Position numbers and translations under genes: made by a program
IMG/VR virus record: IMGVR_UViG_3300042197_001846
Span: 1 to 58,579 of that record
Origin: a virus
Lineage: Duplodnaviria; Caudoviricetes
Length of the DNA: 58,579 bases
Reading direction: 5' to 3' (one strand)
Notes under the pieces: generated by a model
Seen by the model: the letters and a program-made list of their open reading frames with translations, nothing else
Told to the model about the DNA's origin: nothing
The model's database searches: none
Part shown: in pieces, positions 591 to 56,434 of the stretch
How positions within the stretch are numbered: position 1 is the first letter of the stretch
Layout of the letters: each line of letters starts with the position of its first letter

Positions 591-831
591 CTGCTATCTC
601 TTGTTCACGCACGCCCATTGCTTCTAGTTGTTCTGGTAAATATATAGTATCAATACTATCTTCAAATTGTTTAATCTTTTCTATTGTAGCATAAACTTCT
701 TCTATAGTTGGGCAAGGTCTAGGATCTTCCCAGCGTGAAAAATAATTGTTGCTAATTTCCCAGCGTGCACCTGGTCTAAGCAGGTGCATTGCTGTGTCTA
801 TACCCATTAATCTATAAACCTTGGTTGTCAT
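577..831 (-). CDS. Small virion/fibre-associated protein (XkdW-like)
   Basis: 84 aa with ...LRPGARWEI...WEDPRPCPT; in operon after the Gly-rich protein. Confidence 0.45.
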   Translation of the reverse strand: MTTKVYRLMGIDTAMHLLRPGARWEISNNYFSRWEDPRPCPTIEEVYATIEKIKQFEDSIDTIYLPEQLEAMGVREQEIADAIK

Positions 832-839
832 ACTTGCTC

Positions 840-2468: not shown

Positions 2469-2842
2469 TATCCAATCTCCTCATAGCTGCAAACAATATT
2501 AATATCATTTGCTGTACCAGCTATAGCTCCTATACTGCGATCTTCTTCTAGGTAAATATAAGCATTTTTTTCAATAACTACTATACTTGCATCTGCTGGT
2601 ACTGTTATAGTACTACAAATTGGTGTTGCTGTGCCACCTAAACTGGCGGCACTATAGTAATTAATGGTTAATTCTGCATTTGTAACACCATTAACATTTA
2701 CTGCGTATAATGCATTTATTTTTAATACCTTGTTACTACTAGCACTGTTATTTACAATGCTAGTAGCTGAGGTTGTTGTTAACTTAACCGTAGCGGTTTT
2801 ACCATATATCGCAGTTGGCGATATTAAATTTGGTGCTGCCAT
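2468..2842 (-). CDS. Putative virion structural protein
   Basis: 124 aa, beta-rich, tightly coupled to both neighbours in the late operon. Confidence 0.55.
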   Translation of the reverse strand: MAAPNLISPTAIYGKTATVKLTTTSATSIVNNSASSNKVLKINALYAVNVNGVTNAELTINYYSAASLGGTATPICSTITVPADASIVVIEKNAYIYLEEDRSIGAIAGTANDINIVCSYEEIG

Positions 2843-2845
2843 CTA

Positions 2846-5800
2846 TTATCCCCAAATCATTGCTGTTATAATTGAGCTGCCGCCCGTTGCTCCACTGCCT
2901 GCTGGGCCTTGAATACCAATACCACTTATGCCCTGCACGCCTTGTATACCTATTGTACCTATTGTACCTTGTATACCTATTGTACCTTGTGGGCCTTGAA
3001 TACCAATACCACTTATACCCTGCACGCCTTGTACACCTTGCGGACCTATTAAACCGCCTAGTACTCTTATTTGAATTAAATCACCACTATCAGGTGCTAC
3101 TGCAAATACTATGTTGCTACCACTTATTGTATAGCTTGTAGTTGGAGTTTGCGTTACGCCGTTAATAGTTACTAATACGCTGTGAACTGTTAAGCCGCTA
3201 ATAGCTGCAAAACTAGTGTCAGTGCCATTTGCTGTGTAAGTATATGTTGTATACTCTGTTACAGCTAGTCCAGCTCCTACACCTTGTATACCTTGTACGC
3301 CTTGTGCACCACTGCCAGTAACACCCTGTACACCTTGTGGTCCTATTAAACCACCAAGTACTCTGATTTGCACAAGTACTTGATCATCAGGAGCAGTAGT
3401 AAATACTACATTACTGCCACTAATCGTATAGTCTACAGTTGGTGTTTGTGTTACGCCATTTTCTAGTACAAGTACATTGTGTACACTAATACCTGCTACA
3501 GCTGCAAAACTTGTTGTACTACCATTTGCTGTATAAGTATATGTTGTATACTCTGTTACAGCTAGTCCAGCTCCTACACCTTGCAGACCTTGTATACCAG
3601 TTAAACCTTGTATACCTTGAGTACCGCTGCCAGTTGAACCTTGTAGACCTTGCAGACCCTGAGCACCATCAGCACCTATATAACCACTAATACCTTGTAT
3701 ACCTGCTGTACCGCTAAGGTCATTGATATACTGATAGCTAGTGCCATTCCACAGGTAGAGTTTACTATTATCAGCGTCGCCAACATTACCAGTGTCTATT
3801 AGTGCAAATTGACCACTAACAATACCAGTTGGGCTAGTATCAGCTGTTAATGCTGCTACTGAGTTATAAACTTTAGCTACTGTAAATGCTAGTCCAGTAT
3901 CACCTTGTATACCACGTAATCCTTGTATACCTTGTACACTCTGTGGTCCTTGTATACCCTGAGTACCCTGAGCACCTATTAAACCACCAAGTACTCTAAT
4001 TTGAATATTGGTTCCAGTTGCTGGCGCAGCTAAAAATACTACATTATTGCCACTAATAGTATAATTCGCTGTTGGGGTTTGTACTACACCATTTATAGTT
4101 ACGATTACAGTATGTACTGTTATACCAGATACTGCAGCAAAACTTGTAGTAGTACCATTACCTGTATAAGTATAAGTTGTATACTCTGTTACAGCTAATC
4201 CGGCTCCTATACCTTGTGCACCTGTTATACCTTGTATACCTTGTATACTTTGTGGACCTTGTATACCTTGTACACCAAAACTACCTTGTATACCTGTTGT
4301 ACCTTGGGGTCCCTGAATACCTTGTATGCCTTGTAATCCAAAAGCTCCTAGTACTCTTATCTGTACTTTTACGCCTATTGCCGGTGCTGTTACTAAAGTA
4401 ACATATGGTCCGGTTACAGTATAATCAGTAGTAGGTGTTTGTGCAACTCCATTTTCAAAAACTAGTATATTATTTACATTGATACCACTAGTTACTAAAA
4501 ATGCGCTTGTTGCTCCATCGCCGGTAAAGTTATAGGTTACATAGCTTGCTTCTACTACAGCACCTGGGGCACCTTGTATACCTTGTATACCAGTAGCACC
4601 TTGTATACCAGTACCAGTTGTACCTTGGATGCCTTGCGTACCCTGAGCACCATCACCGCTGCCACCGCCACCACCACTACCTGCAGGACCTTGTATACCT
4701 TGTATACCTATACCAGCAGCACCTTGTATACCAGCACCTGTAGCACCTTGAGTACCTTGCGCACCTTGTAGGCCATCACTACCTATGTATCCACTAGTAC
4801 CTTGTATACCTTGATTACCAGTTGCACCTTGTATACCAGTACCAGTTGTACCTTGCACACCCTGTGCTCCATCACTGCCTATATAGCCACTAATACCTTG
4901 TATACCTTGTACACCAGTATTTGTAACCGCAAAAGTTCCAGTCATAGAACCATGCAATTCACAAATGTAGTATAATGTATCTGGCGCGTCAAAAGGAACA
5001 ACAAATACTATTTGACCATTTTGAGTACCATTATTAGTTATACCACTAGTGTAAGCACTACTTGTACCAGTTACTTGACTAGTTTTAATCCAGAATGGAT
5101 GCCCTGGAGAGTTAACATTAAAGTAGTAGGTAAATCCTCTTATTAATCCAATGCTAGCATTTGCAACACCGTTAATTAAGAAAGAACTAGCACCACTGTT
5201 AGTAACAGTATGTGTAACTCCACCTACTTGTCCTGTTATACCCTGAGATCCAGTTATACCCTGTGTGCCTTGTGTACCACTACTACCACTACTTCCTGCA
5301 ATACCCTGTATACCTGCTGTACCACTAAGGTCATTAATATACTGATAGCTAGTACCATTCCACAAGTAGAGTTTACTGTTATCGGCATCTTGTACATTTC
5401 CAGTATCTATTAGTGCAAATTGTCCACTAACAATGCCAGTTGGACTAGTATCAGCTGTTAATGCTGCTACTGAATTGTAAACTTTAGCTACCGTAAATCC
5501 AAGACCTGTTGCACCTTGAGTACCCTGAGCACCTTGTGTACCTTGAGTACCTTGCGTACCTTGTAGTCCTTGAGCACCTTGTGTACCCTGCAAGCCAAGT
5601 AAACCTTGTATGCCCTGTGTACCTTGAATACCTTGTAGTCCTTGTGTACCTTGATTACCCTGTAGTCCTTGAGCACCTTGTGTACCTTGTAGTCCTAATA
5701 GGCCTTGTGTACCTTGTACACCTTGTAGACCTTGAGCACCCTGTATACCCTGTGTGCCTTGTATACCTAGGTCACCTTGTATGCCCTGTGTACCCTGAAC

Positions 5801-8800
5801 ACCTTGTGTACCTTGTGTACCTTGTGTACCTTGTAAACCTAGCAAGCCTTGAGTGCCCTGTGTACCTTGTGGTCCCTGAACACCTTGTGTACCTTGTAAA
5901 CCTACAGGACCTTGTTCACCTAAGATACCTTGTACGCCGTTTCTACCCTGTATGCCACGATCACCACGCTCGCCTTGTATGCCCTGAATGCCTAGGTCAC
6001 CTTGAACACCTTGAACACCTTGTACACCTTGTCCGGCAAACTGTCCATGTAAACCTTGAACACCTTGAACACCTTGTATACCTAAGTCACCTTGTATACC
6101 TTGTATACCTTGCGCAGCATACTCACCACGTAAACCTTGAGTACCCTGCGAACCAAAGTCTCCTTGTACGCCTTGCTGACCTTGAATACCTTGTGCAGCA
6201 TAAAGTCCGTCTAAGCCTTGAACACCTTGTGGACCTGGTAAGCCTTGTAATCCTAGGTTACCTTGTATACCTTGACCACCTGTTAATCCTATTGGTCCTG
6301 GTGGGCCACTAGTACCTTGTACACCGCGATCGCCTTGTGGTCCTTGCGGTCCTGTAGGGCCTATAGAACCTGTGCTGCCACTGTCACCTGCTGGACCTAT
6401 TGGGCCTTGCACACCTTGTATACCCTGTGCAGCATAAGCACCGTCTAAGCCTTGACTACCTTGTGTGCCTTGTATGCCGGTGCCTGGTATACCTTGAGTA
6501 CCCTGTATACCCTGTGCGGCAAACTCACCACGTAAACCTTGTGTACCTTGTAAACCTAGATCACCTTGTATACCCTGCAGGCCTTGTACGCCTTGTGCAG
6601 CATAGGCACCATCTAAACCTTGCACGCCTTGTATGCCGGTACCTGGAGTGCCTTGAACACCACCTGGACCTTGTATACCCTGCAGGCCCTTAATACCCTG
6701 CGGACCTTCAATCTTGCCTACATTAACCCAGTTAGTGCTAGACCATACCCATAAGTAACCTTGTACAATCCAACTATCACCTGGTGTAACATTTGTAGTT
6801 GGCAACTGTGCTGGACTATCTTTACTACCTTTAATAGTAAGTGTACCAGGATTAATACCACCAATTGTTGTGCCACTTGGTAGTGCAAGTCCAGTATCTG
6901 GATCATTGCTGATTGTAGCTCCACCTAGATCAATAGTAGTGCCGCTTAAGTACAAGTCTTTCCAGCGACGTGTAGGACTGCCTAGGTTAAATGCTTCATT
7001 AATACTAGGTACAATACTTTGAGCAACGTTAGCTAAGTCTACACCTGGTATACCTTGACTGCCTTTAGTACCTTGTGCACCTTGTGCACCTATTACACCG
7101 GCCGTACCTTGAATAGCTTGGCCTTGTACGCCTTGTATACCTTGACCAGCAAATAGTCCATGTAAACCTTGCGTACCTTGCACACCCTGCGTGCCCTGTG
7201 TGCCTTGTATACCCTGTGCAGCATATTGGCCTGCTAAGCCTTGTGTGCCTTGACCGCCTTGTACTCCTTGTAAACCCTGTGTAGCTTGTACTAATAGCTG
7301 CCAATATATTGTATTAGTTGCTCCACCAGAAAACTGTGGTGCTTCATTTTGGAACTCACCTTCATAGATCGATATGTAGCTGCCGCCATTATAGTAAACT
7401 GCATCGCCTGCAACATAAATTCTATTAGGATTAAATGTACCTGTCCAAATTAGTCCACGACCTACAGTACCTTGAGTACCTTGTATACCGCCAGGACCTT
7501 GAGCACCTTGAAATACTGCTGCTCCACTAGCACCTTGTGCACCAAATCCTGGTGGTCCTTGTAAGCCTTGCAAGCCTTGAACACCTTGTGCAGCATATTG
7601 ACCTGCAATACCTTGAGTACCACTTCCTGGAGGTCCTTGTACACCTTGTGGACCTTGTACACCTTGTGCAACAAATGCACCACTTAAACCTTGAGTACCT
7701 TGACTGCCTCGTGGTCCTGTTAAGCCAGCTTCTCCTGCTAAACCTTGTGTACCTTGTACACCTTGTCCAGCAAACTGACCTGCAATACCTTGAGTACCTT
7801 GTGCACCTGGACTACCTGGCTCACCTGGAGCACCTGCTTGACCGGCTGGTCCTGCTGGGCCTTGTGCACCTAAATAGGCACTACTACCACTTAGACCTTG
7901 TATACCTTGTACGCCACTGCCTTGTACACCTTGAAAACCTCTAGTACCTTGTATGCCTTGATTACCTGGACCACCTTGTACGCCTTGATAACCACGTATA
8001 CCTTGTGCAGCATAAGCACCGTCTAAGCCTTGTGGTCCTAGTCCTCCTTGTAGTCCAAATACACCTTGTATACCAGTTTGTCCTTGTGGACCTAGTCTAC
8101 CTTGAGTACCCTGAAAACCTTGTATACCACGCTCGCCTTGTATACCACGTTGACCTTGTATACCTTGACCAGCAAATTGTCCATGTAAACCTTGTGGACC
8201 AGGAGCTCCTTGAATACCGCGACCTTGTACGCCTTGTATACCTTGTGTACCTTGTAAGCCTTGACGACCTAGTAAGCCTTGTACACCTTGGCGTCCTTGT
8301 ACACCTTGATTACCTTGCACGCCTTGACCAGCAAACATACCGTGCAAGCCTTGGCTACCAGTTGTACCTTGTATACTACGGCCTTGAACGCCTTGAACGC
8401 CTTGAACACCCTGTAAACCTTGGAATCCACGTATACCTTGTATGCTAGTACCCTGCATACCTTGTGGTCCTTGACGTCCTTGCACACCTTGTCCGGCAAA
8501 CTGTCCGTGTAATCCCTGCGGACCTTGGCGACCTTGAATTCCTTGCATACCTTGTATGCCTGGCAATCCTTGTATGCCTTGTATACCCTGAAAACCTCTA
8601 GTGCCTTGTATGCCTTGAAAGCCTACAAAACCTTGTACACCTACGCCACCTTGTACACTAGCACCTTGTAAACCTTGTAAACCTTGAATACCTTGTGTGC
8701 CTTGTGCAACAGCACGATCCCAGCGACGATAATCTACATCAATATCATAGTTTTTATCATGGTGTACGCCAGGAACCCATGTAGGTGCAGTAAACGTAAT

Positions 8801-11800
8801 AGGACCATCTGCAGTTCCTGGAATACGTTGCACTCCTGGTACGTTTAGTAAGCCACTACCTGTTGGTGTGCCTGGTAAACTAATAACACCTATTGTTCTA
8901 GCAGTATTTTTAGCTAGTACAATTGCGCTACGACCTGTATGATAAGTTATGTTTTCACCAAGGTTATTTATATAGGTAGCATATATCTTATTATAAGAAA
9001 CTACATAGTATACATTACCTAATCCGGTGTATTCGTCTAGTAGTCCGCTGCCAGTATTAATACCAATAACATAGATTGGATCACCTGGAACGATATTTTC
9101 ATTTACAGGAGTATCAAACTCAATTTTACCAGTAGTATTTACAATGACAACATTATTAAGCGTATTAGAAATAAAAGTACTATTACTTACATACCAGCCA
9201 CCTTTATAACTGACTACGTCATAGCGTTTATACTGATTTTGTGGCAGCCACTCAGCACGCCATTCAAAACCAATACCCACTATACCTTGTACGCCTTGTA
9301 GTCCTTGTAGCCCCTGTAGTCCTTGTAGTCCCTGTGGTCCTTGTGTACCTTGTACACCTTGACCGGCATACATACCATGTAAACCTTGAGCACCTTGTAA
9401 ACCCTGAGTACCTTGTCTACCAGTAATACCTTGTAAACCTTGGTTATGACTAATACCATCTACACCTTGGAAGCCACGTAAGCCCTGCACGCCTTGCATG
9501 GTCATGCGCTGCCAATATAAGCCGTTTACAAATCCACCTGGATACTCTGGTATCTGTCCAAAGAATACGCCATAAGGCGGTACATTACTATTAGGCCAAA
9601 TTGCTATAAAGCTGCTGCCATTATAGTAAACTACGTCGTTTGCTTTGTAGTTAGCAGTAGTGTTATAATCACCACGCCATACAATGCTAAATCCCTGTAT
9701 ACCTTGTATGCCTTGTACACCTTGAATACCTTGTTCGCCCCGTGGCCCAGGAATACCTTGTATGCCTTGGACTCCACGATCTACTATTAGTTGCCAAAAT
9801 GCTGTATTAACTACGCCATCACTAATTTCAGGCGCTTCTTCTTGGAATGGAGTTGTATTTACACAAACAAATGCTTTTCCGCGATAGTATACTACGTCAT
9901 CTTTAACGTAACCAATATAAGTGTCACTATATGTACCACGGAATACAAAACCTTCACCTTTGAAACCTTGTAATCCTTCAAAACCTTGTGTGCCCTGTAT
10001 ACCCTGTATACCTTGTATACCCTGAGCATCAAATGCACCGCGTAACCCTTGTACACCTTGTACGCCCTGTACACCTTGGCTACTAATAACATTCCACATG
10101 CTATCAGTGAGCTCGCTGGGTACATTGTTCATGTTATTATCTATAACACTTACCCAGCTAGTACCGTTATATTGTACAGCATGATTTTTACTGTAGTTGG
10201 TAAACGGATCAAATTGACCACGCCAAACAAAACCAATACCTTGTACGCCTTGCAAGCCTATAGCAGCATAAGCACCGTCTAGACCTTGTACACCTTGTAA
10301 GCCTTGATCACCCTTTTCGCCAGTGTCACCTTTTTCGCCTACAAAGCCTTGTATACCTGTAAAACCTTGAATACTTTCGCCTTGTATACCTTGATTACCC
10401 TGTATACCTAAATCACCTTGTATACCAGTAAAACCTTGTAGGCCTTGGCTTGTTAGTCTGTTCCAGTAACCACTATTTACAACACCAGGACTAAATTCTG
10501 GCCCTTGTTCAAAAAACGCACCATTATAAACAGCAATAAAACTATCACCATCGTAGAAGACTACGTCATTTTTATAGTAAGTAACATCACTACTATAATC
10601 ACCACGCCATACAATACTATAGCCTTGAATACCTTGTAAACCCTGAGTACCTTGTATACCTTGTATACCTTGTAAGCCCTGGTTATGACTAATACCATCT
10701 AGACCTTGTAGACCTTGTAATCCTTGTAGGCCTTGTTCACCTTGTAAACCTTGTATGCCCTGTAAGCCTTGTAGTCCTTGCTCGCCTTGTATGCCTTGTA
10801 TTCCTACGTCGCCTTGAATACCTTGTAGGCCTTGAATACCTTGGATACCTTGCAGTCCTTGATCACCTTGTAGGCCTTGAATACCTTGAATACCCTGGGT
10901 GCCCTGCATGCCTTGTGCAGTTAGGCGATTCCAGTATGTGCTGTTTAATACACCTGGGCTAAACTCTGGTGCTTCTTCTTGAAATACGCCTGGATATACA
11001 CAAACAAAGCTATTACCATTAAAGTATACTACATCATTTAGTTTGTAGTATTTGGTAAAATCATAGTCGCCTTGCCAGTAAATACCACTACCTTGTGCAC
11101 CTTGAAGACCTTGCTGACCCTGGATACCTTGCATACCCTGAATACCTTGGTCGCCCTTATCACCAGTTCTAGCAAAGGTAATAATTATATCATCATTATT
11201 TACAAATGCAGCACCTGTAGCTGATAAATAGCTACACTCTACAGTATAGTAAGATCCAGTATCAACGATACTATTAATACTATACATAATAAAGGCTGTA
11301 CTAGTAGCCTTGTAACTAATTCTAAAATGGCCTTTAATTGTGCTAGTACTTTGTGCAATTGTAAATAAAAATTGCGCTATATTAAAAGGACCATCCTGCT
11401 CTTTGCTAATGTACATGCGTGTAGCATTAGCAAATGTGGTATTATTTAGGCGTAGTCGACCACTACCAGGATTGTCATCTGTGGTAGCATTATCAAACGT
11501 ATAATCAAAACTAGCACCGCCAAAACCACCAGTTAAACCTTGTGTGCCTTGTAGCCCTTGTACACCTTGTAATCCCTGTGTGCCTTGTGTACCCTGGCTA
11601 CCAGTATTAGCATAAAATAAGCTACAAATAGAACCATTGGTGCTACCACCAATCATATTTTGTGCTTTACCAGCTAAATATGTAACTGATAGCTTGTAGT
11701 AGATAATAGTAGGATCTATAGCATCTACTTCTTGCGTTAAACCAGTAACATTAAATATTAGATAATCGTTGTTTAATAGTACAGGATTTGTAGCGGCTGC

Positions 11801-13288
11801 ACTAAATACGTTATAGTCTGGCTGTATTACAAGTTGACCAGCAACTGGATGTGCAGGATTCTGTGTAAAATTACCAATCCAACCAGTAACATCAATACCT
11901 TCTAGTGAATTAGGATTGATTGTAATCTGTGTAATATTTTGTGGCGTAGAGGTTGGCAGTGAATTAAACTTAAAGCGTCCTGCTTCAGGTGCTTCGGTAA
12001 TATCCGTGCCTGTTTGGAATCTATAAAGAATACCAGCGCGAAAACCGCGGTTGCCTTGTATGCCTTGTACACCTTGTGTACCTTGTGGGCCTTGCGTACC
12101 TTGAACGCCTTGTAAGCCCTGTAGTCCCTGCACGCCTTGCGTACCCTGTGCCGAACTTAGGGTCCAGTAGCTGCTATTTAATACACCTAAATTAAGTTCA
12201 GGAGCTTCGCCTTGTGGTACACTTTGTATAGCTACAAAAGTGCTACCATTATAGCTAACGCTATCATTAAGTCCATAACTACCTGTGGACAAATAGCTGC
12301 CACGCCATGTAAGATTGCGACCTTGTATACCTTGTATACCTTGTATGCCGCCAACACCTTGATCACCAGCAGGAACAAATAGTACAGAAGTTATATCATT
12401 AAGGTCAATAACTCCACCGTGCCAAGTACCACTTAGGTAGTTGACATCTACTTTGTACCAATCGCCTTGATCTTCGGTGGCAACTACACTAAATACTGCT
12501 ATAGCTCCGCCAATACTTTCAGCAGCTTGAAATACTAGATGACCTTTTACGGGATTTTGAGTTTGATTCCAGCTCTCTATCCAACTTTCTTGATTGAGTC
12601 CAGTATGATCTACAATATCTAAATATACTTCGGTTACCAGTAAAAGATTATCGCTATTAAATCGTACACGACCAGTTCCTGGATCACTGGTACTTGTACT
12701 AGTAGACCACTGGTAGGGGACTCCGCCACGATAACCTATAGGACCACGTATACCTTGCGGTCCAGCAGGACCATAACCACCAACTCCTTGTGGGCCAAGT
12801 CCTCCAGGTAATCCTTGAGCTCCTTGTATACCTTGTGTACCTTGAACCATACGGTTCCAGTACAATACATTAGTTAGTATTGTTCCAGGATATTCAGGAC
12901 TTTCATTTTGTGTAGGATTTTCATTTATATAAATAAAGCTACTACCATTGTAGTAAACTACATCATTTTTATAATAAATAAAAGTGCTATTATAAGGACC
13001 GCGCCAAGTTACAGCTAGGCCTTGAGCTCCTTGAGCTCCTTGTAGTCCTTGTAGTCCTTGTAGTCCTTGTAGTCCTTGACGACCTTGTAACCCCTGAACT
13101 CCTTGCAATCCTTGTGGGCCTTGATAACCTTGAACACCTTGTCCGGCAAAGTCACCTGGAATACCTGGGTAACCTTGTACACCTTGTACGCCTTGGGGTC
13201 CTAGATAACCACCAACAATTACTTGTTGCTGAAGATCTTCAACAATTACTGTATTACCAGTAGATGTAACTACTGTTGTTGTAGTCAT
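2846..13288 (-). CDS. Giant collagen-like (Gly-X-Gln) fibre protein, 3480 aa
   Basis: Long G-X-Q triplet runs interrupted by repeated W(R/Q)G.Y...Y..ND.V.YNG.SF modules, a cupredoxin-like module and C-terminal YTYT.NG..TSF repeats. Confidence 0.85.
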
Positions 13289-13884
13289 CGTGTAACCTCC
13301 CTAACTAGTGAAAGATTACCTGTTAAAAATGTAGTTACCTTATTACTAAGCGTATCAGTTAATTCCAAGCTATATATAGCTGTACTAAAACTAAATGCTG
13401 TAGTTTGTGTACTGGTCATTTTAACGGCAATAGTATGTACTGCGGTATCTATTACTATACCGCCATTTGTCGTAGTTAATTCTAATATTAGAGCACCGTC
13501 TAAATTTTCTCTAATTTGCATTTTTGCTGTTAAGTTTACTAGTGGTACTGGGGCGTTCCATGTAAGTATACCGCCACTAGTATAGGTACCGTAATTGGCG
13601 CTGTTTATTTCATTAATGGTAATTTGATCGCTAGCAATAGTAGTAGATAAATAATAGCTATCTTCTGTGGCTAGATTAATTTCCTTCATACCACTAACGC
13701 CAGTAATACGCACACGCCAATGTGGTGGAGGTGTTAATTCGCCTGTATTAACTGTAACAACACATGGGGCACTATTAGTAATCGTATTAATAGTAGCATA
13801 GGCTTTTGTAGCTGACTCCCAGCGAAATACTTCTTCAAAGCTACTGCCTTGATATATCTTATAATTAATTCTTGCTGGATTCAT
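13285..13884 (-). CDS. Putative tail/baseplate adaptor structural protein
   Basis: IYQGSSFEEVFRW...AKMQIR...YSLEL...[11 protein letters not shown]; this type of protein commonly precedes phage fibre genes. Confidence 0.55.
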   Translation of the reverse strand: MNPARINYKIYQGSSFEEVFRWESATKAYATINTITNSAPCVVTVNTGELTPPPHWRVRITGVSGMKEINLATEDSYYLSTTIASDQITINEINSANYGTYTSGGILTWNAPVPLVNLTAKMQIRENLDGALILELTTTNGGIVIDTAVHTIAVKMTSTQTTAFSFSTAIYSLELTDTLSNKVTTFLTGNLSLVREVTR

Positions 13885-13885
13885 A

Positions 13886-14212
13886 TTAGCCTCTGCTCAT
13901 TTGTTTAAAACGTGTTAACTCTAGTGTTAACTGGGCAATTTCTTCTTGCAGTTTACTATTTTCTATATTAAGCTTTGACAGCTCTTGATTAAGCCTAATA
14001 ACTTCTTCTTGTAGCTTACCAAGTTCAGTGCTTAATTTTGAATTTTGTTCACCCATACGCTCTATTTCTGTATGCATTAATTGAATGATATTGGTTTCGG
14101 CTTCTGTAGAACGCCAATCCTTTAACAGTTTTTGAACTCCTACTACTAAGCCAATTGCGGCTAGGGCTACCAAGGAGACTGTTTGAACTAAATCTTGACT
14201 CTGACTCTCCAC
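13886..14212 (-). CDS. Holin-like protein (N-terminal TM helix plus coiled coil)
   Basis: Hydrophobic LVALAAIGLVVGV followed by a heptad-rich region; GTG start with GGAG RBS; has its own promoter. Confidence 0.5.
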   Translation of the reverse strand: MESQSQDLVQTVSLVALAAIGLVVGVQKLLKDWRSTEAETNIIQLMHTEIERMGEQNSKLSTELGKLQEEVIRLNQELSKLNIENSKLQEEIAQLTLELTRFKQMSRG

Positions 14213-14308
14213 TGTACAATCTCCTAAATTCTATATTCTACTGAAAAAATGCCGTATAATCAGGTTTAACCTGGTCAAATTTGTACCGGTTTTTTACAAT
14301 TTAAACCT

Positions 14309-14337
14309 ATTATACCACAAGGGCTAAATAAAGTCAA
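14309..14337 (-). promoter_or_regulatory. sigma70-type promoter TTGACT-N17-TATAAT with extended -10 TG
   Basis: + strand ATTATA 14309-14314 and AGTCAA 14332-14337. Confidence 0.8.
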
Positions 14338-14340
14338 TGC

Positions 14341-14380
14341 AAAAAATATCCCTGCACTAGCTATAGCCGGTGCAGGGATG
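14341..14380 (-). terminator. Rho-independent terminator
   Basis: ATCCCTGCAC...GTGCAGGGAT stem followed by a T-tract on the minus strand. Confidence 0.75.
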
Positions 14381-14396
14381 TATACAATTCTACAGG

Positions 14397-14612
14397 TTAT
14401 TCTTCTGGATAGATTGTTATTCCATTGTCCTGTAGTTTTTGATAAATCGCTTCAAGTAAGAAATCATTAACAAACTCATATCGTTGCGGCAATTCAAAAG
14501 TATATGTATCTTTTAATCTTGATAAATTATTAACTGTTTCATATATTTGAATTGTTACTTCTGTAGTATTTGTTAAATTATCTACTGATAGTTTAATTAC
14601 TTTAACAGACAT
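14397..14612 (-). CDS. Hypothetical protein (tail fibre region)
   Basis: 71-aa ORF co-oriented in the late operon. Confidence 0.55.
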   Translation of the reverse strand: MSVKVIKLSVDNLTNTTEVTIQIYETVNNLSRLKDTYTFELPQRYEFVNDFLLEAIYQKLQDNGITIYPEE

Positions 14613-14633
14613 TGTTTTATAAACCTTATAAAT

Positions 14634-15260
14634 TTAGGGTCCACTAGTATCCTCCGGAGGAGGTGGTGGAGGTGTTGGAGTTGGTACAACTGGAGGTGGA
14701 GGAGGTCCTGCTGGTGGAGCTGATGGTGGTGGTAATATAGGTGTTTCGCCACTCATAGGCCATCTACAATAGTACAAAGTATAACTTACGTCAATTGGTT
14801 GTGGAAATGTTAATGTTCCGCCACCATTATAGACTTCTATATCATCTTTATCTTTTAAAATATTTGCTGTTGTGATACCAACAGTTTGACGTATTACTAA
14901 TGATAAATCAGATAGAACAAATACGTCAAATATAATAGATCCTGCGTAGCTTCCATCAGACTGTCTATAAGATGCTAATTGTACTGTACCTAACCCACTC
15001 AATGACAGTCCTCCAGACTGTGCATCGCTATTACTTATTCTAAAACTTGGAAGTATAAAGTAGCCATAATTTTGTATTCCGGGTGTACCTGCAGGTAATA
15101 TAATATAGTCAGTAGTATTATAACCTAGCAATACACTACTTATTGTAAAGGTTCCGGAAATTGTGCGAAGAATACTTGGCATTTTTCGCAAAGTTGTAAA
15201 TCTTGCTTCGCCAGCAGTATTAGTCATTAATATGTCATTGTTTTGTATTAATAATGGCAT
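14634..15260 (-). CDS. Tail-associated protein with Pro-rich C-terminus
   Basis: 208 aa, ends ...PPPSAPPAGPPPPPVVPTPTPPPPPPEDTSGP. Confidence 0.6.
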   Translation of the reverse strand: MPLLIQNNDILMTNTAGEARFTTLRKMPSILRTISGTFTISSVLLGYNTTDYIILPAGTPGIQNYGYFILPSFRISNSDAQSGGLSLSGLGTVQLASYRQSDGSYAGSIIFDVFVLSDLSLVIRQTVGITTANILKDKDDIEVYNGGGTLTFPQPIDVSYTLYYCRWPMSGETPILPPPSAPPAGPPPPPVVPTPTPPPPPPEDTSGP

Positions 15261-15272
15261 ATTGTATCCTAT

Positions 15273-15953
15273 CTAAAAATATACGGACGAAGAAACTGAC
15301 TCATTGTTACTGTCATAAGCAGTAAGTTTTGCTTCGTAAGTATTATATGCGGATAAACTAGGTATAGTAATACCTATAGTTGGATTGTCCGGACTTAACC
15401 CAGTGTATGAATCATACAAATTATTATTCTCATATATTTCTATATATACCCCTATAGCTCCGGTCGTTTCCCATAATAACTTAACATTAAATGTAGTTGC
15501 ATCTATATTTGTTACAGTATAATTATAAGAATCTATCGTAATTCCTGTACTAGGAGGAGGGCTAGGAGGAGGGCTAGGAGGAGGGCTAGGAGGAGTACTC
15601 GGAGGAGGGCTAGGAGGAGTACTCGGAGGAGGGCTAGGAGGAGTACTCGGAGGAGTACTTGGAGGAGGACTTGGAGGAGGACTGCTTCCACCACTTAACC
15701 AACTAGTTGTAGGAAACCTTAAATATAATAAGGCTGGAAATGCCCCACTGGCCCCATCTCCAATGGATATAGTAGTTCCATCAAAATAATATGTAGTACC
15801 AGTTGCACTAACATATATTGTTGGGTTTAGTGGTATTTTTACAGCATCTGAACTACTAACAGTATCTATATTAATATAATCTTTAGTTATATTAAATACG
15901 GACCCTACATATAATTCGTCATTATCAGCATATAATATATTAGTAGTAGACAT
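15273..15953 (-). CDS. Tail-associated protein with Ser/Pro linker and FN3-like C-terminal domain
   Basis: (SPPPSTPP)n linker, then a beta-sandwich-like region (W...Y...LSAYNTYEAKLTAY). Confidence 0.6.
   Translation of the reverse strand: MSTTNILYADNDELYVGSVFNITKDYINIDTVSSSDAVKIPLNPTIYVSATGTTYYFDGTTISIGDGASGAFPALLYLRFPTTSWLSGGSSPPPSPPPSTPPSTPPSPPPSTPPSPPPSTPPSPPPSPPPSPPPSTGITIDSYNYTVTNIDATTFNVKLLWETTGAIGVYIEIYENNNLYDSYTGLSPDNPTIGITIPSLSAYNTYEAKLTAYDSNNESVSSSVYF
15551..15682. repeat. 12/24-bp tandem coding repeat encoding SPPP/STPP
   Basis: Tandem aggaggagggct and aggaggagtact(c/t) units visible directly. Confidence 0.85.
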
Positions 15954-48224: not shown

Positions 48225-48658
48225 GGTTCTAGAAACTATAACGGCCCCCAAGCGGGCCGTTATTTTTCTGATAACGGTTATAAATTATAGAATTTGCACC
48301 GCTATAATTTTTATAGCGGCCGCGCCATTATACTAGTATAATGGCAGGCGTGTCAAGCGATTTTGCCGCCATTCATCGGCCCCTAACTGCCGCTTGTCGG
48401 GTCGGTTTTGGGTGTAATTGGGTATAGTTATGGTTATTATATTGTTATAAAAAACATAACAATCTTGCGCCAAAATTTTACCACAAAATTTTGGCCGCTG
48501 TCAAGCGATTTTGCCGCCGTTTATCGACCCTAAGCCGCCGCCTGTCGGGTAGTTTTCATAACGGTATAAAAAGCATAATCGTGCTAAATTCTATAAACCA
48601 TAACGATATAGACCCCATAACGATATAGGTTCTATAAACCAGCACACCCCTAGGTGTG

Positions 48659-48950
48659 CTGCGCCAGTGCAAAAACTCAAGTGCAAAACTTTGAGCTGGT
48701 CTGCGCCAACATTATAGTGGAAATCCTTGGGCCAAGTCAAGTAAGTTTTTCTGACCCTAAACCAGAGCAGGTTGCAAGCAGTCCCAAAAAAATTTGCCGC
48801 GGTTTAGGGTCAGGTTGCCACGACCACAAAAAATATTTACTTGCGCCAGTGCCTAATCTAGTGCAAAATCAAAATTTCTGTGGTCCTGCGCCAACATTAT
48901 AGTGCAAATCCTTGACACAAGTCAAGAGAATTTTTCTGACCCTAAACCGT
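48659..48950. repeat. 185-bp-period imperfect direct repeat (two copies)
   Basis: GCGCCAGTGC...CTGCGCCAACATTATAGTG.AAATCCTTG...AAGTCAAG...TTTTTCTGACCCTAAACC; ATTATA at 48711 and 48896. Confidence 0.85.
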
Positions 48951-49010
48951 AATAACCCACGGTCACGGGCAATAAAAAACCCTGCACAGGGCAGGGCTAT
49001 TTGTGTAGGA

Positions 49011-49331
49011 TTAAATCGATTTATCCAGTTTAGGGTCAAGTAATCGCCTGTTAAGTAAGATTAACACCGATTTATTCACCTTTTCTAGGCTTTCTAACTG
49101 ATCGCTGGGAACCCCCAATGTTTGGGCAAGTTGTTCGATATACTCCCACTTCTTTACCGGCACCTCGCCACGTTTGTTGAGGTACGTCTTTTTTTGGTAG
49201 ACACCCAAACTGGAGAGCTTGGCAATTATGCTACGGTCAGGGACGCCAAGAGTATTAGCAATCTCCAACGTAGTTGCTCCGCCTTTATATTGTTCAACAA
49301 TCTTATCTGTAATTTCTTTGGTATATTTCAT
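49011..49331 (-). CDS. A2-like DNA-binding protein, divergent copy 3
   Basis: KYT.E.T..IVEQY..G....EIA..LG...RSIIAKLS..GVY...GE.PVKK...SLEK.NKS.L. Confidence 0.7.
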   Translation of the reverse strand: MKYTKEITDKIVEQYKGGATTLEIANTLGVPDRSIIAKLSSLGVYQKKTYLNKRGEVPVKKWEYIEQLAQTLGVPSDQLESLEKVNKSVLILLNRRLLDPKLDKSI

Positions 49332-49345
49332 GGTAGTTTTTGACC

Positions 49346-50116
49346 CTAAACTGCAGCAATTTTACCAGTATTAATCTGCCAAGGCAGCAGCTCACTAATT
49401 GGTGTTTTAGCTGGTTCAACTTTTTGTCCATTAAACAATTCGCTGTCTACTAGTGGTGGTGGCATACTATCCCAGTTGTGGGGGTCTAGGATCATAGTCG
49501 ATCTGCGGTTTTTAGGATGTGCTAGCCAAATTTGACACATCATGCTCTGTAATAAGATAGTCTGGTCACCTAATTGTGTGTCCCCCACCCCATACAATTT
49601 CCAAGTACTTTCAGCTGGCCTGGTTGTACCAGCTTTGGGTCCGCTGCGATAGGCTAAACCTTGCTGTCTAATAGCTAGCAATTCTTCGTTAGTAATGTTA
49701 GGTATGTTTTGTGTTAAACTTTCATAGAGCAGTGGTTCTAGGATCCATTTAAGCTCGTGATGATCCTGCCAGTGGCTGTAGGGCTGGTTGTAGCTTTGGC
49801 GTAGTCCTAGTAAGACTAGTGGGGTAAGTTGTCCGTACTCAGGCTGTTGTGTTTGATTTTTTATTAGCAGGCTGCGGCGAACTCTGGTTAATCTGTAGAG
49901 TGTTTTGTCTAGGTCACTACTAGTATTCTTTTGCACAGTTTCTAGTGGATTGTTATAGAGTCGCCAACGACCAAAGTGTGCTACTAGTTGTGGTAGCAGC
50001 CAACTACTGTAGTTTTGCAGTGGACTATTTTCCAGGTGTTCTAAAAATTGATCGTTGCTGTAGTTAGCCCAAGTTTCTAGGCCTAGTGTGTAAATGTCTT
50101 GTTTCTTGATGTACAT
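49346..50116 (-). CDS. Conserved T5-like phage hypothetical protein
   Basis: SWLLPQL..., TPLVL..., QIW.A.P..R...MI motifs recall (from memory) a conserved T5-family early protein encoded next to the terminal repeat. Confidence 0.55.
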   Translation of the reverse strand: MYIKKQDIYTLGLETWANYSNDQFLEHLENSPLQNYSSWLLPQLVAHFGRWRLYNNPLETVQKNTSSDLDKTLYRLTRVRRSLLIKNQTQQPEYGQLTPLVLLGLRQSYNQPYSHWQDHHELKWILEPLLYESLTQNIPNITNEELLAIRQQGLAYRSGPKAGTTRPAESTWKLYGVGDTQLGDQTILLQSMMCQIWLAHPKNRRSTMILDPHNWDSMPPPLVDSELFNGQKVEPAKTPISELLPWQINTGKIAAV

Positions 50117-50732: not shown

Positions 50733-50762
50733 AAAACAAAAGCCCGCACAAGGCGGGCTTTT
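50733..50762 (-). terminator. Rho-independent (likely bidirectional) terminator
   Basis: AAAAGCCCGC-ACAAG-GCGGGCTTTT. Confidence 0.8.
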
Positions 50763-51700
50763 GAACTGTACATGTTTTTAGTTTAATGGCGGTGGATTGC
50801 TTTTATGTAGCGCTACTACGACCACCATACATCTTTGTCTACACTCTAGCTAGTTGCGAATTAGCGTAAGTCGGTGTAGGCGATGCCACGAACATCGGCT
50901 GTTCTTAGTTGCTGTTCGGTCTTGGGTTCCAGCCAAGATATGGGCAACTAGCGCGGGTAGGGTTTTCACCTACATTCCCCACTTAAGGGATGTTTGCTTA
51001 CAAAACCGCGACTAACCCAGGCTCTGGGGTCAGGCCTTGCCATTTATTGTTGGCGCACTGCCCTGTTAGGGCATAATCAGTATTTTATACTAGCTGCGGT
51101 ATTATCTGACTATACATAATACGCTAGACCCTAAACCGGATCGGTTGCCAGGCTAGAGGGCTTATTTCTAGCACACCTTTGCTCTGAGCACGTTTGAGCT
51201 ACTGGCATATTTGTTAACGACTGTCTACCCCACAGCTCCAGTTAACTACGGCTTGTGGCATGTAACCCTGAGTTCATTATCCAACTGGGTTGGCAAGAGG
51301 AATAGCTCAAGGACTGTAGTGGGTGGCCGCCATGCACTGTGGCAGAATCGGCTCCACTGGTTTCTAACTCTCGTGTTAGATAACGCATAACTACGTATAT
51401 GCTACGGTAACAGGTCTTTTGGTTAACCCCTATAACTGTTAACAAACTAGGGGGCTGGTTCCTTTAGGGTGGTTAGCAGCTTCCACCATAATGTATATCC
51501 GTTCCGCAGCAGGTCAGCTACGCAAGCTCGTTGGCCGCAGATTTCAACACATTTGTATAACCACCAAAAGGCATGGGGTCAAATCAGCAGTTATACAAAT
51601 AGGTTGAGGTGGGTCTGTGTTAAGGGTAAATTCAACACAGATTAAGAACTTATCCAACAGATTAGTGTTGGCCCTGGTTCGCCCTAAACTGTCACTCAAT
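50763..51700 (-). ncRNA. Candidate large structured ncRNA A (~940 nt)
   Basis: Bounded by promoter 51707-51735 and terminator 50733-50762; no credible ORF; many stems. Confidence 0.6.
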
Positions 51701-51714
51701 AATAATATTATACA

Positions 51715-53652: not shown

Positions 53653-54064
53653 ATGCGCTCAAGCTGCCAATTATTGCAAGTACCACGAATGCCGTCATCA
53701 TACTCTACTAGTACATTGCCCCAAAAGCTCTCCGGTCCGTCATAGTGTAACCATTGCTTGATAACTGTAGCCACCATACCATTTGGACCTACTAAGACCT
53801 TAGTACCACTAGTAAACTTTGCAGTTTGACCACTACTATCTATCTTACAAGTGCAAGCACTAAACTCCTCACACTCGTCGTCTATTTGTAAGAAGTCCCA
53901 GTCAGGGCATAAGTGTTTATACAGTGCCATAGACACGCTCCAACAAAACCTGTTCAGCTGCTTTAAGTGCAGCGTTCCAACTAGGTGTGTCGTATGGATC
54001 GCCGTCTGCGCCAACGCCCGAATATCCGCGTAGATCATCTAGTACGTCAAGCACAGCCTTGAGT

Positions 54065-54307
54065 TCAACAATCTGGGTCATAGCTCATCCACTCATCGTA
54101 TTCACTAGGCTCATAAACACTACTATCAATATCGCTAGTAAAGTCGATGGCATCACCAAACTCGTCGTAGACATGGCAATCGTATTGTGTTGGATCTGCA
54201 TCTGCATGCCACCTAGCGAACTCCAATCTAGCCTCGTAAAGGTAATCAACCTCAAACTCATCAACAACGGCACTAGTCAAGCTGTTAACAACTTTACACT
54301 TATACAT
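54065..54307 (-). CDS. Acidic hypothetical protein
   Basis: GGAG RBS before ATG at 54307 (MYKCKVVN...YDPDC). Confidence 0.55.
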   Translation of the reverse strand: MYKCKVVNSLTSAVVDEFEVDYLYEARLEFARWHADADPTQYDCHVYDEFGDAIDFTSDIDSSVYEPSEYDEWMSYDPDC

Positions 54308-54320
54308 TTGTTCTCCAGAC

Positions 54321-54353
54321 AAAAATGGCAGCCAAGTGGCTGCCAAAGAAAAA
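54321..54353 (-). terminator. Rho-independent terminator
   Basis: TGGCAGCC-ACTT-GGCTGCCA followed by TTTTT on the minus strand. Confidence 0.7.
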
Positions 54354-55253
54354 CCATACAAAAGCTGATTACTATTCCTCACCTTTTGGGCGCTACACTA
54401 CATGGCTAGCTATGCTTGTATCGAACCCTAATCAGCTTTTGTATGGCTACCGGTTACAAAATCCGGCGTTACACTTTCGGAGTAACTGTTCTACCTATCC
54501 CGCTACCCTACTTCGTTTAAGACTCGCCGCCTTTATACACGCTGATAGCCACGTGTTATGATATTGCTATCATATTCAAACACATTTGAACCTTTCTTCT
54601 GTGCTCAGACACAATCTCCCATCTAGAGTGGGCGTGGGGTATGTGCTTGAATATGATACCAGTCCCTAAACTGGATCATATTGTCTTTTTACTCTAGGAC
54701 GACAGTCCGCAAGTCTCAAATAGCCCTATGCGTAGTCCACCATCACTCGCATATTTTAGTTGACGGGACTTTCACCCGCCTCGACATTGGCCGCCTAGCC
54801 ACTAGGGAAATGTGACAGCAAGCTTATCGGGCCTTATTATCCTTACCCTAAACCGCGGCAGGTGATAGTATTGAGGCTATCAGCGTCAACCTTGTGGGTT
54901 TTGGGTTTCGCTGGAGTTGCACCAGCTCATCAGAGGATTTAGTTAGCTACCACTCCCACATGGCCCTAACTTGAGCAGTTACTCTGTCCATACCTTAGTC
55001 GGGGTAAGGTACGCCCCGTTACCGTTTTACCCTAAACCTGGATGAATGGCCCAGTGGGAGGTCTGGCAACTAACCTAAAGCCTCTAACGCTAGCTTTATC
55101 GCGCTCGGCCATTGGGTATGGCCGAGATTAGTTAGTACAGTCAGTGGTCGCTACAATGCACATTTTGTGTAATATATAAATATTTATTTAGTGTGGCAAA
55201 ATGTCATTTAAAGCTGTGGGCCTTGTCAGGCTTTACTTTCCTCACTGACTATA
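54354..55253 (-). ncRNA. Candidate large structured ncRNA B (~900 nt)
   Basis: Bounded by promoter 55260-55288 and terminator 54321-54353; no credible minus-strand ORF; 12-20-bp long-range inverted repeats. Confidence 0.65.
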
Positions 55254-55298
55254 AATAATATTATACAGGGTTTGGGCTACTAGTTCAAGATAAAATTT

Positions 55299-56434
55299 TT
55301 AGTCTTGAACTACTATGTGCTCATAGGTTCGCCTAGCAGCACCAAAAAGGTAGTCGCGTACAATTTCTTGACGCATAAGTTCACAAGTCCAGGTTACAAG
55401 CTCGCGGCTATAGTGTTCAAATTCACTGGTATAATCACAACTCCAGTCAATGTTACCAGGCCCAGGGCCGTGTGGTTCGTCACCCCAAAATACAAAGCCA
55501 CATTCATGTGCCAAACTCTTAAATCTTGGCGACAATTTTATGGGTGTTTGTGGTTGCAGATTTGGTTTAAGCGCACTATTGATTGTGTTAATAATTTCCT
55601 GATCCATTTTAGTCCTTTACTTCCCAAGCCCAGTTGGTGATAACCCAATCGTCGAGGCAATCTTCCCAGGTAAACTTACTATCAACCTCACTTTTACCAA
55701 ACTTCTTACACATACGTTCATACCAATATGGCCAGTATTCTACGCGTATTTCTTGCTCGGTAATTAAACGTGGTTCAGTATCTTCAAACTCATTATACTT
55801 GAATACTCTCGTCTTCGCCATCTTGATTAACTCTAGTAAAGTTTAAGCAGGTTACCCTGTAATCGTCTATTACATATTCTAAGGTACGTGTAGTTGGCTG
55901 GCTGCCAAAGTCTCGACTGTAGACTAGGTTACCATCACGCTCATAGATCTTTATCTGTGTGCTCATCTTGTGCCCTTTCTGGTGGAGACTCAAGTCCAAA
56001 GTACAGCTTAATAGCCATAGTAAGTTGTGTTTTACTGGGTTTACTAGCCTGTACAATTTGTAACACATCATCAACGACTAGGTTAACCAGTTTATTATAA
56101 TCAGTATTATTATCTGCCCAGCGACTATAGCTTTGCTGTTTATATCGTTTAATTAGTTCCTGTTTCAATGTGGTGCTCCAAGATAGTGTCGGCCAATAAG
56201 GTTTAGTATTACAAATACGCTAAACCAAAGCATGCCGTAAAGAAAATAGCGTTCATAGCGATTTTTAATTGCATACCAGGGAATCTGCTTAAAGGTGTAC
56301 ACATCTTGTATCCACAGCTGATCGTTATCAATATAATTTAGCTGTGGTGGCTGATAGTAGCGGCCAATCTTAACACGTTGATTTAGTTGTATAGGTATTG
56401 GTACAATCTCGCCATCACGAATTATGTGTGCCAC
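55299..56434 (-). CDS. Run of small hypothetical early genes (55299-55607, 55609-55821, ~55793-55966, 55941-56168, 56165-56434)
   Basis: Tightly packed or overlapping co-oriented ORFs. Confidence 0.55.

Follow-up and report, generated by a model that had tools for sequence, protein, structure and literature searches.

A probable stable-RNA operon with a predicted hammerhead ribozyme in a distant T5-like bacteriophage

Introduction

The record of phage T5 (AY543070) annotates "stable RNAs with unknown functions" (RNAI, RNAIII, RNAIV, RNA1, RNA2, RNA2H, RNA3, and RNAX); several of them, among which RNAX has 719 nt and its own promoter, lie in the transfer RNA (tRNA) region. The large phage RNAs GOLLD and ROOL occur near tRNA islands; GOLLD varies in one half and can contain embedded tRNAs (PMC12286853). 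Theta (HDV-like) ribozymes lie by phage tRNAs and, in gut phages, have been proposed to process the 3' trailers of tRNAs without host ribonucleases (RNases) (PMC10879173). Hammerhead ribozymes in prophage transcripts have been proposed to process long phage transcripts into units, and the hammerhead of the haloviruses HF1/HF2 cuts 13 nt upstream of a start codon (PMC3088659). The biological role of bacterial and phage hammerheads has been called an open question (PMC6155905). We analyzed a 58.6-kb IMG/VR viral contig (record IMGVR_UViG_3300042197_001846, positions 1 to 58,579; hereafter the window) and the noncoding transcription unit RNA B on its minus strand, which had originally been predicted from the sequence as a single structured RNA of ~900 nt. 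We propose, with a probability of about 0.7, that in RNA B a distant T5-like phage carries a noncoding "stable-RNA operon", organized as a chain of cassettes with a hammerhead and not as a single global fold. This proposal builds on what was observed, namely the noncoding nature, conservation, and mosaicism of the unit, the covariation of one cassette (M2), a hammerhead motif with a compensatory stem II, and contigs from RNA libraries.

The window, estimated to be 56% complete, carries genes for tail and head proteins and for terminase. The large terminase shares 48% identity with those of Salmonella and Vibrio phages with genomes of ~113–118 kb, which we take to be T5-like, and by this likeness we read the window as coming from a distant T5-like phage. 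Of the known systems, the T5 stable RNAs are the closest to the whole unit in kind and position, without detectable homology. Both consist of noncoding stable RNA from the early region of a T5-type phage, inside or next to the tRNA array, and RNAX is similar to the unit in size and in having its own promoter. The comparison with T5 made in the original prediction was apt, on a basis that it did not give, since the T5 record annotates several stable RNAs in the tRNA region. ARAGORN, one of the tRNA checks named in that prediction, called no tRNA gene in the window. In close relatives, the tRNA array lies ~2.4–4 kb from a phosphoesterase gene, on the side opposite RNA B, and the window lacks tRNAs because this position falls beyond the contig end.

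Results

Boundaries and coding content of RNA B

RNA B lies behind a sigma-70-type promoter (TTGAAC, 17-nt spacer, TATAAT; 55260..55288, minus strand), which is kept in the relatives L002–L004, and promoter spacing places the transcript start probably near 55253. The unit ends at an intrinsic terminator with an 8-bp G+C-rich hairpin and a T-run (54321..54345, minus strand; hairpin and T-run at 54345-54326), kept in 13 of 13 homologues. Short open reading frames (ORFs) are present on both strands of the unit, and the single sense ORF of at least 25 amino acids (aa) between promoter and terminator (55032-55112, 26 aa) has its ATG within a hairpin whose letters are replaced in L003, so that the start codon is not kept. 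The promoter, the terminator, and the lack of a credible sense ORF were thus confirmed as predicted. The minimum free energy (MFE) of the 928-nt RNA was −331 kcal/mol, compared with −272.8 ± 7.2 kcal/mol for 20 dinucleotide shuffles (z −8.0). Together with the conservation of the unit in relatives, this agrees with the prediction of a structured noncoding transcription unit.

No Rfam 15 family was found at the gathering score anywhere in the window, in line with the original prediction, in which the RNA was not recognised as a known class. At E values up to 10, four weak matches were obtained in 54000-55600, one of which was Hammerhead_3. Neither the Rfam tRNA models nor ARAGORN gave a tRNA match to the unit, and blastn in "distant" mode found no match of RNA B among 50,697 cultured-phage records, at blastn sensitivity only. 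All of the pairings listed in the original prediction were found at their coordinates. The stem 54354-54371/54429-54446 pairs at 18 of 18 positions and the stem 54568-54585/54641-54658 at 18 of 18 with a G-U; the long-range helix 54539-54550/54875-54886 pairs at 12 of 12; 54933-54952/55064-55084 pairs at 19 of 20 with one bulge, and 54953-54959/55054-55060 at 7 of 7; and the closing helix of the 5' domain (AGTCAGTG/CACTGACT) pairs at 8 of 8.

Relatives of RNA B form a mosaic of cassettes

To compare relatives, we used the phosphoesterase gene 1.3 kb upstream of the unit as bait and obtained 80 IMG/VR loci. Among these, L002–L004 carried the whole unit with 83–88% identity, and the other loci carried pieces only. 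With a conserved word taken from the middle of the unit, we obtained 22 metagenome loci, in which the units of L215 and L222 were identical to that of L003. The comparison set, including the window, comprised 26 loci (25 relatives) with 13 distinct full-length units.

From 5' to 3', we divided the unit into D1, M2, the hammerhead motif, M4, H6, M5, and M6. The 13 distinct full-length units range in length from 721 to 2017 nt through the gain and loss of whole cassettes. An insertion of 46 nt that directly follows D1, the 5' domain, was present in 5 of the 13 homologues, a 670-nt insertion with a 223-aa ORF in three, cassette M5 in seven, and a further module between M5 and M6 in five. Cassette M6 was missing in one (L003), and the top of H6 was exchanged outright among homologues.

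The predicted stems were examined in the 13 distinct full-length homologues. The two local 18-bp stems were kept: in the stem of M6 (54354-54371/54429-54446), 98.6% of cells were paired and one pair was changed on both sides, and in that of H6 (54568-54585/54641-54658), 99.1% were paired and two pairs were changed on both sides. The 5' closing helix showed no variation in any of the 13 and is therefore uninformative. Comparative support was lacking for the two long-range stems. The 12-bp stem had no partner in 6 of the 13, and in the other seven, 4 of its 12 pairs were unpaired in three sequences. In the 20-bp stem (54933-54952/55064-55084), 85.8% of cells were paired, partly via G-U changes; no pair was changed on both sides, and seven pairs departed solely by unpaired cells. 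This stem competes with two strongly covarying local helices of M2. Long-range pairings are possible alternative conformers in this one phage, not conserved architecture.

In distant phages, M2 and M5 sit alone among tRNA genes. M2 occupies the interval from tRNA-Trp to tRNA-Ala in L063, for example, where M5 stands between the genes for tRNA-Ile and tRNA-Asp. On sequence comparison, the mosaic favours an array of separable cassettes over one global fold, and the predicted single RNA of ~900 nt was not supported, given the gain and loss of cassettes and the unconserved long-range stems.

A hammerhead motif lies at the junction of M2 and M4

A hammerhead motif of type-I topology, indicated by core, descriptor, fold, and conservation, was located at 54839..54938 on the minus strand. 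Stem I is formed by 54938-54934 with 54843-54839 (5 bp, AUCCU with AGGAU). CUGAUGA occupies 54933-54927, the stem II hairpin 54926-54910, and GAAA 54909-54906. Stem III (54906-54898 with 54853-54845; 3' strand GUUUAGGGU) is long, has an apical hairpin, and holds a structured insertion of ~45 nt. The predicted cut lies between A 54844 and A 54843. The hammerhead core consensus comprises C3 U4 G5 A6 N7 G8 A9, G12 A13 A14, an A15.1-U16.1 pair, and H17 (non-G). Every one of these positions was present in the window, at 54933-54927, 54909-54906, 54845, and 54844. Formation of the innermost pairs N1.1-N2.1, N10.1-N11.1, and A15.1-U16.1 has been used as a criterion for hammerheads (PMC3088659), and the window copy forms them as A-U, G-C, and A-U, respectively.

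Stems I, II, and III have 5, 5, and 4 contiguous pairs in the window. A descriptor consisting of the core plus stems of at least 4 pairs gave exactly one match in the 58.6 kb on both strands, whereas 1 of 300 dinucleotide shuffles had any match. In 2.3 Mb of other loci, it found the homologues and one compact hammerhead (L128), and nothing else. A hammerhead pattern scan of IMG/VR returned seven stretches, which were three known relatives and four chance matches in coding DNA.

The motif was found in 23 of the 26 loci, all with the same core letters (CTGATGA, GAAA, GTTTAGGGT, A; GCTTAGGGT in L220). It was absent from L211, which has its own promoter instead, from L214, which has an ORF upstream, and from L227, at a contig end. 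When the 18 distinct sequences were folded alone, the three-way junction was the MFE fold in all 18, with CUGAUGA unpaired. Three versions of stem II exist (GCUGG/CCAGC, GCCAC/GUGGC, and UCAU/AUGA), and both sides have changed at 4 of its 5 positions. Stem III shows wobble and mismatch changes among homologues, and its apical hairpin is rebuilt in a compensatory manner. Loop II is conserved as UGCAACU, UGCAAU, or UGCGAU and may thus make a tertiary contact with stem I. The original prediction had noted two T-arm-like hairpins. Both are real hairpins, but they are not tRNA-like: GCUGG-UGCAACU-CCAGC is stem II of the hammerhead, a motif not recognised at that time, and GCGGG-UGAAAGU-CCCGU is an invariant hairpin of cassette M4. 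The motif adds a new member to the known hammerhead class, one whose stem III and setting are both unusual.

In L221, L226, and L229, a 223-aa ORF (4060-4731 in L221) is inserted exactly between the predicted cut site and M4. It begins 15 nt past the predicted cut, and the AGGAU of stem I, lying 7–11 nt upstream of the ATG, could be its ribosome-binding site. The product of the L221 ORF gave a sub-threshold match to a TOD1/MUCI70 glycosyltransferase-like domain (E 3.3e-4). A homing endonuclease was considered for this ORF and rejected, the weak TOD1/MUCI70 match being the sole family match.

The compact type-I hammerhead of L128 (518-584) lies within a phage tRNA array, between tRNA-Leu (438-514) and a stretch of ~110 nt that precedes tRNA-Asn (695-770). 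It scored 27.8 bits with Rfam Hammerhead_1, compared with a gathering score of 34 (E 5.4e-05).

M2 belongs to a family among phage tRNA genes

Cassette M2 is a structured RNA of ~185 nt at 54942..55126 on the minus strand. RNAalifold analysis of 11 sequences gave 31 pairs, of which 18 were changed on both sides, with 95.5% of cells paired. The covariation score was 0.494, compared with 0.221 for shuffles (0 of 500 as high) and at most 0.125 for slid controls. The fold has seven helices over ~175–185 nt, with an invariant 3' domain (GGACAG..CUCA..GGGC) and a terminal hairpin. The window copy matched a hidden Markov model (HMM) with E 1.4e-44, the model having been built from an alignment to which this copy belongs.

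A degenerate word from the invariant 3' domain, used to search for the family, occurred in at least 120 IMG/VR stretches and once in 185,579 prokaryote genomes (one per species). Among the matches listed, 109 of 120 had a tRNA gene at a distance of 300 nt or less, and in those loci, all 1684 tRNAs had the same orientation as the hit. R2, a model of M2, gave 104 matches in 100 of the M2 loci listed, mostly end to end. Over 94 distinct sequences, 25 of 31 pairs covaried, in an alignment fitted to the model and gap-rich in the 5' helices. Judged by these matches, M2 is a member of a widespread phage RNA family of ~180 nt that is normally located among tRNA genes and is found in at least 120 viral contigs. 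The copy in the window departs from this location, as no tRNA is present.

With Rfam at E values up to 1, no match was found on M2 in eight small loci with M2 relatives. At the gathering score, the 123 matches in eight related loci were 122 tRNAs and one tRNA-Sec. An M2 relative compared with the 50,697 phage records by blastn in "distant" mode gave no match, again at blastn sensitivity only. R2 with filters off had no match in the tRNA regions of T5 and T4 (best T5 score, 5.7 bits). T4 rnaC and rnaD were considered as kin of M2 and set aside, having shown no similarity by eye, nhmmer, or R2. In the viral contig L157, a permuted tmRNA (transfer-messenger RNA; 13-295; Rfam RF04321, 97.4 bits) lies beside tRNAs and an M2-family RNA.

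M4 and the remaining cassettes

Cassette M4 is a nearly invariant structured RNA of ~185 nt at 54659..54843 on the minus strand, whose 5' end coincides with the predicted hammerhead cut. Besides the GCGGG-UGAAAGU-CCCGU hairpin, it contains the invariant and mutually complementary loops UCCCUA and UAGGGA, between which a loop-loop contact may form. Its mean identity across 21 distinct sequences was 92%, and covariation is thin for this reason, with support for 14 of the 59 pairs predicted, most of it coming from L214, L218, and L221. In L214, the stem beneath the UAGGGA loop changes from CCAG/CUGG to CCAC/GUGG. In the same locus, a base changes in the strand common to the last helix of M4 and H6, and both alternative partners change too. 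This single lineage hints at two exclusive helices.

M4 lies behind its own TTGAAC-17-TATAAT promoter in L211 and directly 3' of an ORF in L214 and L221. The predicted cut is 5 nt upstream of GGCCCGAUAAGC, where the paired part of the M4 model starts. In L211, the −10 box is 10 nt upstream of the aligned CCCGAUAAGC, which places the inferred start only a few nt from the predicted cut position of the window. R1, a model of M4, found M4 nowhere else in the 575 kb searched with default filters, T5 and T4 included. A hairpin of T5 RNAX (AY543070 12849-13567) has the same UGAAAGU loop as the M4 hairpin and a local UAGGG/CCCUA pairing; homology was considered for this loop and rejected as probably chance, as R1 gave no match to RNAX.

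Cassette D1 (55139..55250, minus strand) is the 5' domain closed by AGUCAGUG/CACUGACU, a helix with 8 of 8 pairs that is invariant in 13 of 13 homologues. It has a small inner hairpin that appears compensatory by eye (GCCU/AGGC, GUCU/AGAC, and GCGA/UCGC). Cassette H6 (54568..54658, minus strand) is a long hairpin made of its 18-bp stem and a variable apical part, which is wholly different between homologues; further compensations were seen in L214. H6-like hairpins with a CAUAUUGAAGCAC-type stem occur in the tRNA array of L008 (11121-11212 and 12880-12991), the first of which connects tRNA-Asn at its 3' end with tRNA-Ala at its 5' end. These hairpins may be recurrent processing sites or cassette borders.

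Cassette M5 (54447..54567, minus strand) is the optional module noted above. For the overlapping segment 54442-54584, the tRNA arrays of L008 and L063 contain pieces with 90.9% identity over 143 nt; the phosphoesterase of these phages is just 58–59% identical. Cassette M6 (54354..54446, minus strand) is the 3' domain closed by its perfect 18-bp stem and is present in 12 of the 13 homologues. M2, M4, M5, and M6 had no match in Rfam 15. An RNase P-like reading of GAAAGUCC was dropped, as no Rfam RNase P model matched. In L226, an extra block of ~250 nt before the terminator (alignment columns 1850-2105) contains T-arm- and acceptor-like stretches; a tRNA inside the L226 unit was not called by ARAGORN.

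Contigs from RNA libraries cover RNA B

Among the sequencing runs listed, 12 recorded as RNA contained 30–46% of the sampled words. We compared contig depth along the region in four runs. In the riverine metatranscriptome X1, summed contig depth was 77–8246 in bins over 54513-55253, compared with 0–46 in flanking coding bins. In X2, a riverine metatranscriptome from another study, the corresponding values were 191–15613 and 0–59. X8, which is probably DNA, was comparatively flat, with 15–594 inside and 0–163 outside. The low-depth part 54342-54512 and a ranking of the cassettes by depth were unusable. The depth contrast, obtained from contigs, is a hint, not proof, of abundant stable RNA.

Other features of the window

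A second noncoding unit, RNA A, of ~970 nt was found on the minus strand at 50737-51710, with a TTGAAA-17-TATAAT promoter (51735-51707) and a terminator (50763-50737). The relatives that share RNA B also conserve this unit, with block-wise indels, and it has no hammerhead. RNA A and RNA B showed no real similarity to each other (best E 0.14).

The motif GTTTAGGG occurs 12 times in the window, compared with ~1.8 expected by a rough estimate, and all copies lie within 43.5–55 kb. At 48.3–49.0 kb (window 48300-49400, both strands), copies or near-copies stand ~14–23 nt upstream of the −35 box in four tandem promoter-like units, which inverted copies face. The copies near these promoters may be the DNA site of a regulator.

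A single ORF of 3480 aa (2846-13288, minus strand) is followed by ORFs of 2052, 1739, and 1192 aa, which are unusually large for a T5-like virion module.

Discussion

Comparison with known systems

The hammerhead of the window resembles type-I hammerheads (Rfam clan CL00010; RF00163) in its full core and its three helices, with stems II and III closed and stem I open, and it lies in a phage setting, as do many bacterial hammerheads (PMC3088659, PMC6155905). It differs in the ~45-nt insertion in stem III, in the 5-bp stem I, and in scoring below the Rfam gathering threshold. The window copy stands in a noncoding array beside non-tRNA structured RNAs and does not flank protein genes. The downstream unit is also noncoding, in contrast to prophage and HF1/HF2 hammerheads; L221, L226, and L229, with an ORF start shortly after the predicted cut, resemble the HF1/HF2 case.

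The theta ribozymes offer another parallel, as small self-cleaving ribozymes in a phage stable-RNA cluster that are proposed to process neighbouring RNAs. They belong to a different class, and the hammerhead would make a non-tRNA 5' end in the window, whereas that of L128 would cut between a tRNA and another RNA stretch. GOLLD and ROOL resemble the unit as large and abundant phage noncoding RNAs, often near tRNA islands; the unit differs in that separable cassettes are favoured over a single fold. Their models gave no match at the gathering score in the window, nor at E values up to 10 in 54000-55600. The T5 stable RNAs had no similarity to RNA A, RNA B, or M2 by blastn or nhmmer, and none with R1 or R2. 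No CUGANGA heptamer was found in seven of them (RNAI, RNAIII, RNAIV, RNA1, RNA2, RNA2H, and RNAX).

In the literature excerpts consulted, which did not extend to the supplementary lists of PMC10690425 and PMC3088659, we found neither M2 nor M4 described, nor any hammerhead within a noncoding array of T5-like kind. PMC10690425 reports 8,495 unnamed IMG/VR candidates, and M2, M4, M5, and M6 may or may not be included among them.

Proposed organization and alternatives

In the proposed operon, the strong sigma-70 promoter would drive one precursor that ends at the intrinsic terminator and comprises independently folding D1, M2, hammerhead, M4, H6, M5, and M6. The hammerhead would cleave itself at 54844/54843, splitting the M2 side from M4 and giving M4 a defined 5'-hydroxyl end, which RNase P could not make because M4 is not tRNA-like. 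The remaining junctions would probably be cut by host nucleases, the two perfect 18-bp hairpins being plausible RNase III sites. The released RNAs would most likely act in the early programme of the phage tRNA array, in host translation, RNA processing, or as decoys, since the M2 family normally sits among tRNA genes. The window, L211, the ORF insertions, and L128 would all be consistent with a general role, that of making the ends of transcripts on which RNase P cannot act. Such a role is paralleled by the proposals made for theta ribozymes (PMC10879173) and prophage hammerheads (PMC3088659).

Several points weigh against this organization. RNase III processing and any function of M2, M4, M5, and M6 are only what we infer. 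Contig depth is no measure for ranking genes or gene parts, and RNA libraries may hold DNA. The other points concern cleavage and would equally suit a hammerhead-like motif that has no activity or arose by chance, either a relic or a structural junction of three helices, with the precursor processed by host RNases alone or not at all. Hammerhead_3 scored 16.3 bits at 54960-54900, far under the gathering score of 48.5 (E 4.3), a shortfall that we ascribe to the insertion in stem III. Stem I is short and, being invariant, gains no support from covariation. A U-U mispair stands at the innermost pair of stem II (10.1-11.1) in 5 of the 18 distinct sequences, a ground on which candidates were rejected in PMC3088659. 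The MFE fold of the full 928-nt RNA uses competing long-range pairings that hide stem I and part of stem III. Contigs from RNA libraries span the predicted cut (X1 record 5, X2 record 12, and X4 record 20), so uncleaved molecules or DNA exist. We nevertheless regard an inactive motif as unlikely: the core is invariant in 23 loci while stem II has been rebuilt in three ways, the chance expectation is 0.003 per window, and the cut site coincides with the 5' boundary of M4, which in L211 starts at a promoter instead.

The long-range pairings, which are present in the window and dominate its MFE fold, would be real helices if the unit were one large, ornate RNA of ~900 nt like GOLLD or ROOL, with the cassettes as its domains. 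The location of GOLLD and ROOL near tRNA islands and the variable half and occasional embedded tRNAs of GOLLD (PMC12286853) agree with such an RNA, as does the 20-bp helix insofar as it stays paired in 85.8% of cells, partly through G-U changes. That helix, however, has no changes on both sides and clashes with two covarying helices of M2, and the 12-bp helix lacks its partner in 6 of 13 homologues, with 4 pairs unpaired in 3 of the other 7. The nearly three-fold variation in length by gain and loss of whole cassettes, the occurrence of M2, M5, and M4 alone elsewhere, and the absence of a GOLLD or ROOL match even at E values up to 10 likewise make one large RNA improbable. It is very unlikely that the unit serves the downstream gene as a long, structured leader or as a regulator, or that it codes for small peptides. 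The downstream ORF does start close by, its ATG at 54307 lying 14 nt past the T-run with GGAG upstream, and short ORFs exist on both strands; yet a strong terminator stands between the unit and this gene, the sole sense ORF of at least 25 aa has no ATG in L003, the indels of the homologues are whole cassettes that ignore reading frame, and changes in helices are compensatory. We consider it extremely unlikely that the locus acts as DNA, as an origin or protein-binding array with GTTTAGGG as its sites. The excess of this motif, confined to 43.5–55 kb, and the several copies shortly upstream of −35 boxes at 48.3–49.0 kb speak for such a role. Covariation, on the other hand, is strand-specific and tolerates G-U, and contig depth is high in RNA libraries only. 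Two of the three GTTTAGGG copies of the unit fall in RNA elements (hammerhead stem III and the M4 hairpin loop), and L214 keeps the loop copy while the flanking stem changes from CCAG/CUGG to CCAC/GUGG.

Implications

On sequence comparison, this is a real noncoding locus, for which the single-RNA model should give way to a cassette array with an embedded hammerhead whose self-cleavage is predicted. RNA families new to Rfam 15 surface here, among them M2, which is co-oriented with tRNA genes and appears abundant in river metatranscriptomes. The hammerhead lies at the precise junction of two conserved noncoding RNAs, the downstream of which starts at a promoter instead in L211. This gives a concrete, testable role for a hammerhead, that of making the 5' end of a non-tRNA stable RNA.

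More tentatively, M2 may be a new widespread class of phage RNA, hammerheads a general end-making device for non-tRNA stable RNAs, and the "tRNA island" a broader stable-RNA island, a view that we hold with less than even confidence. If it is true, M2 would be a class of lytic phages, non-tRNA stable RNAs such as M4, a further class, would obtain their ends without RNase P, and the stable-RNA island of phages would hold several undescribed RNA classes acting on host translation or defence. The comparative handle provided by this locus could also open the question of T5's own stable RNAs with unknown functions.

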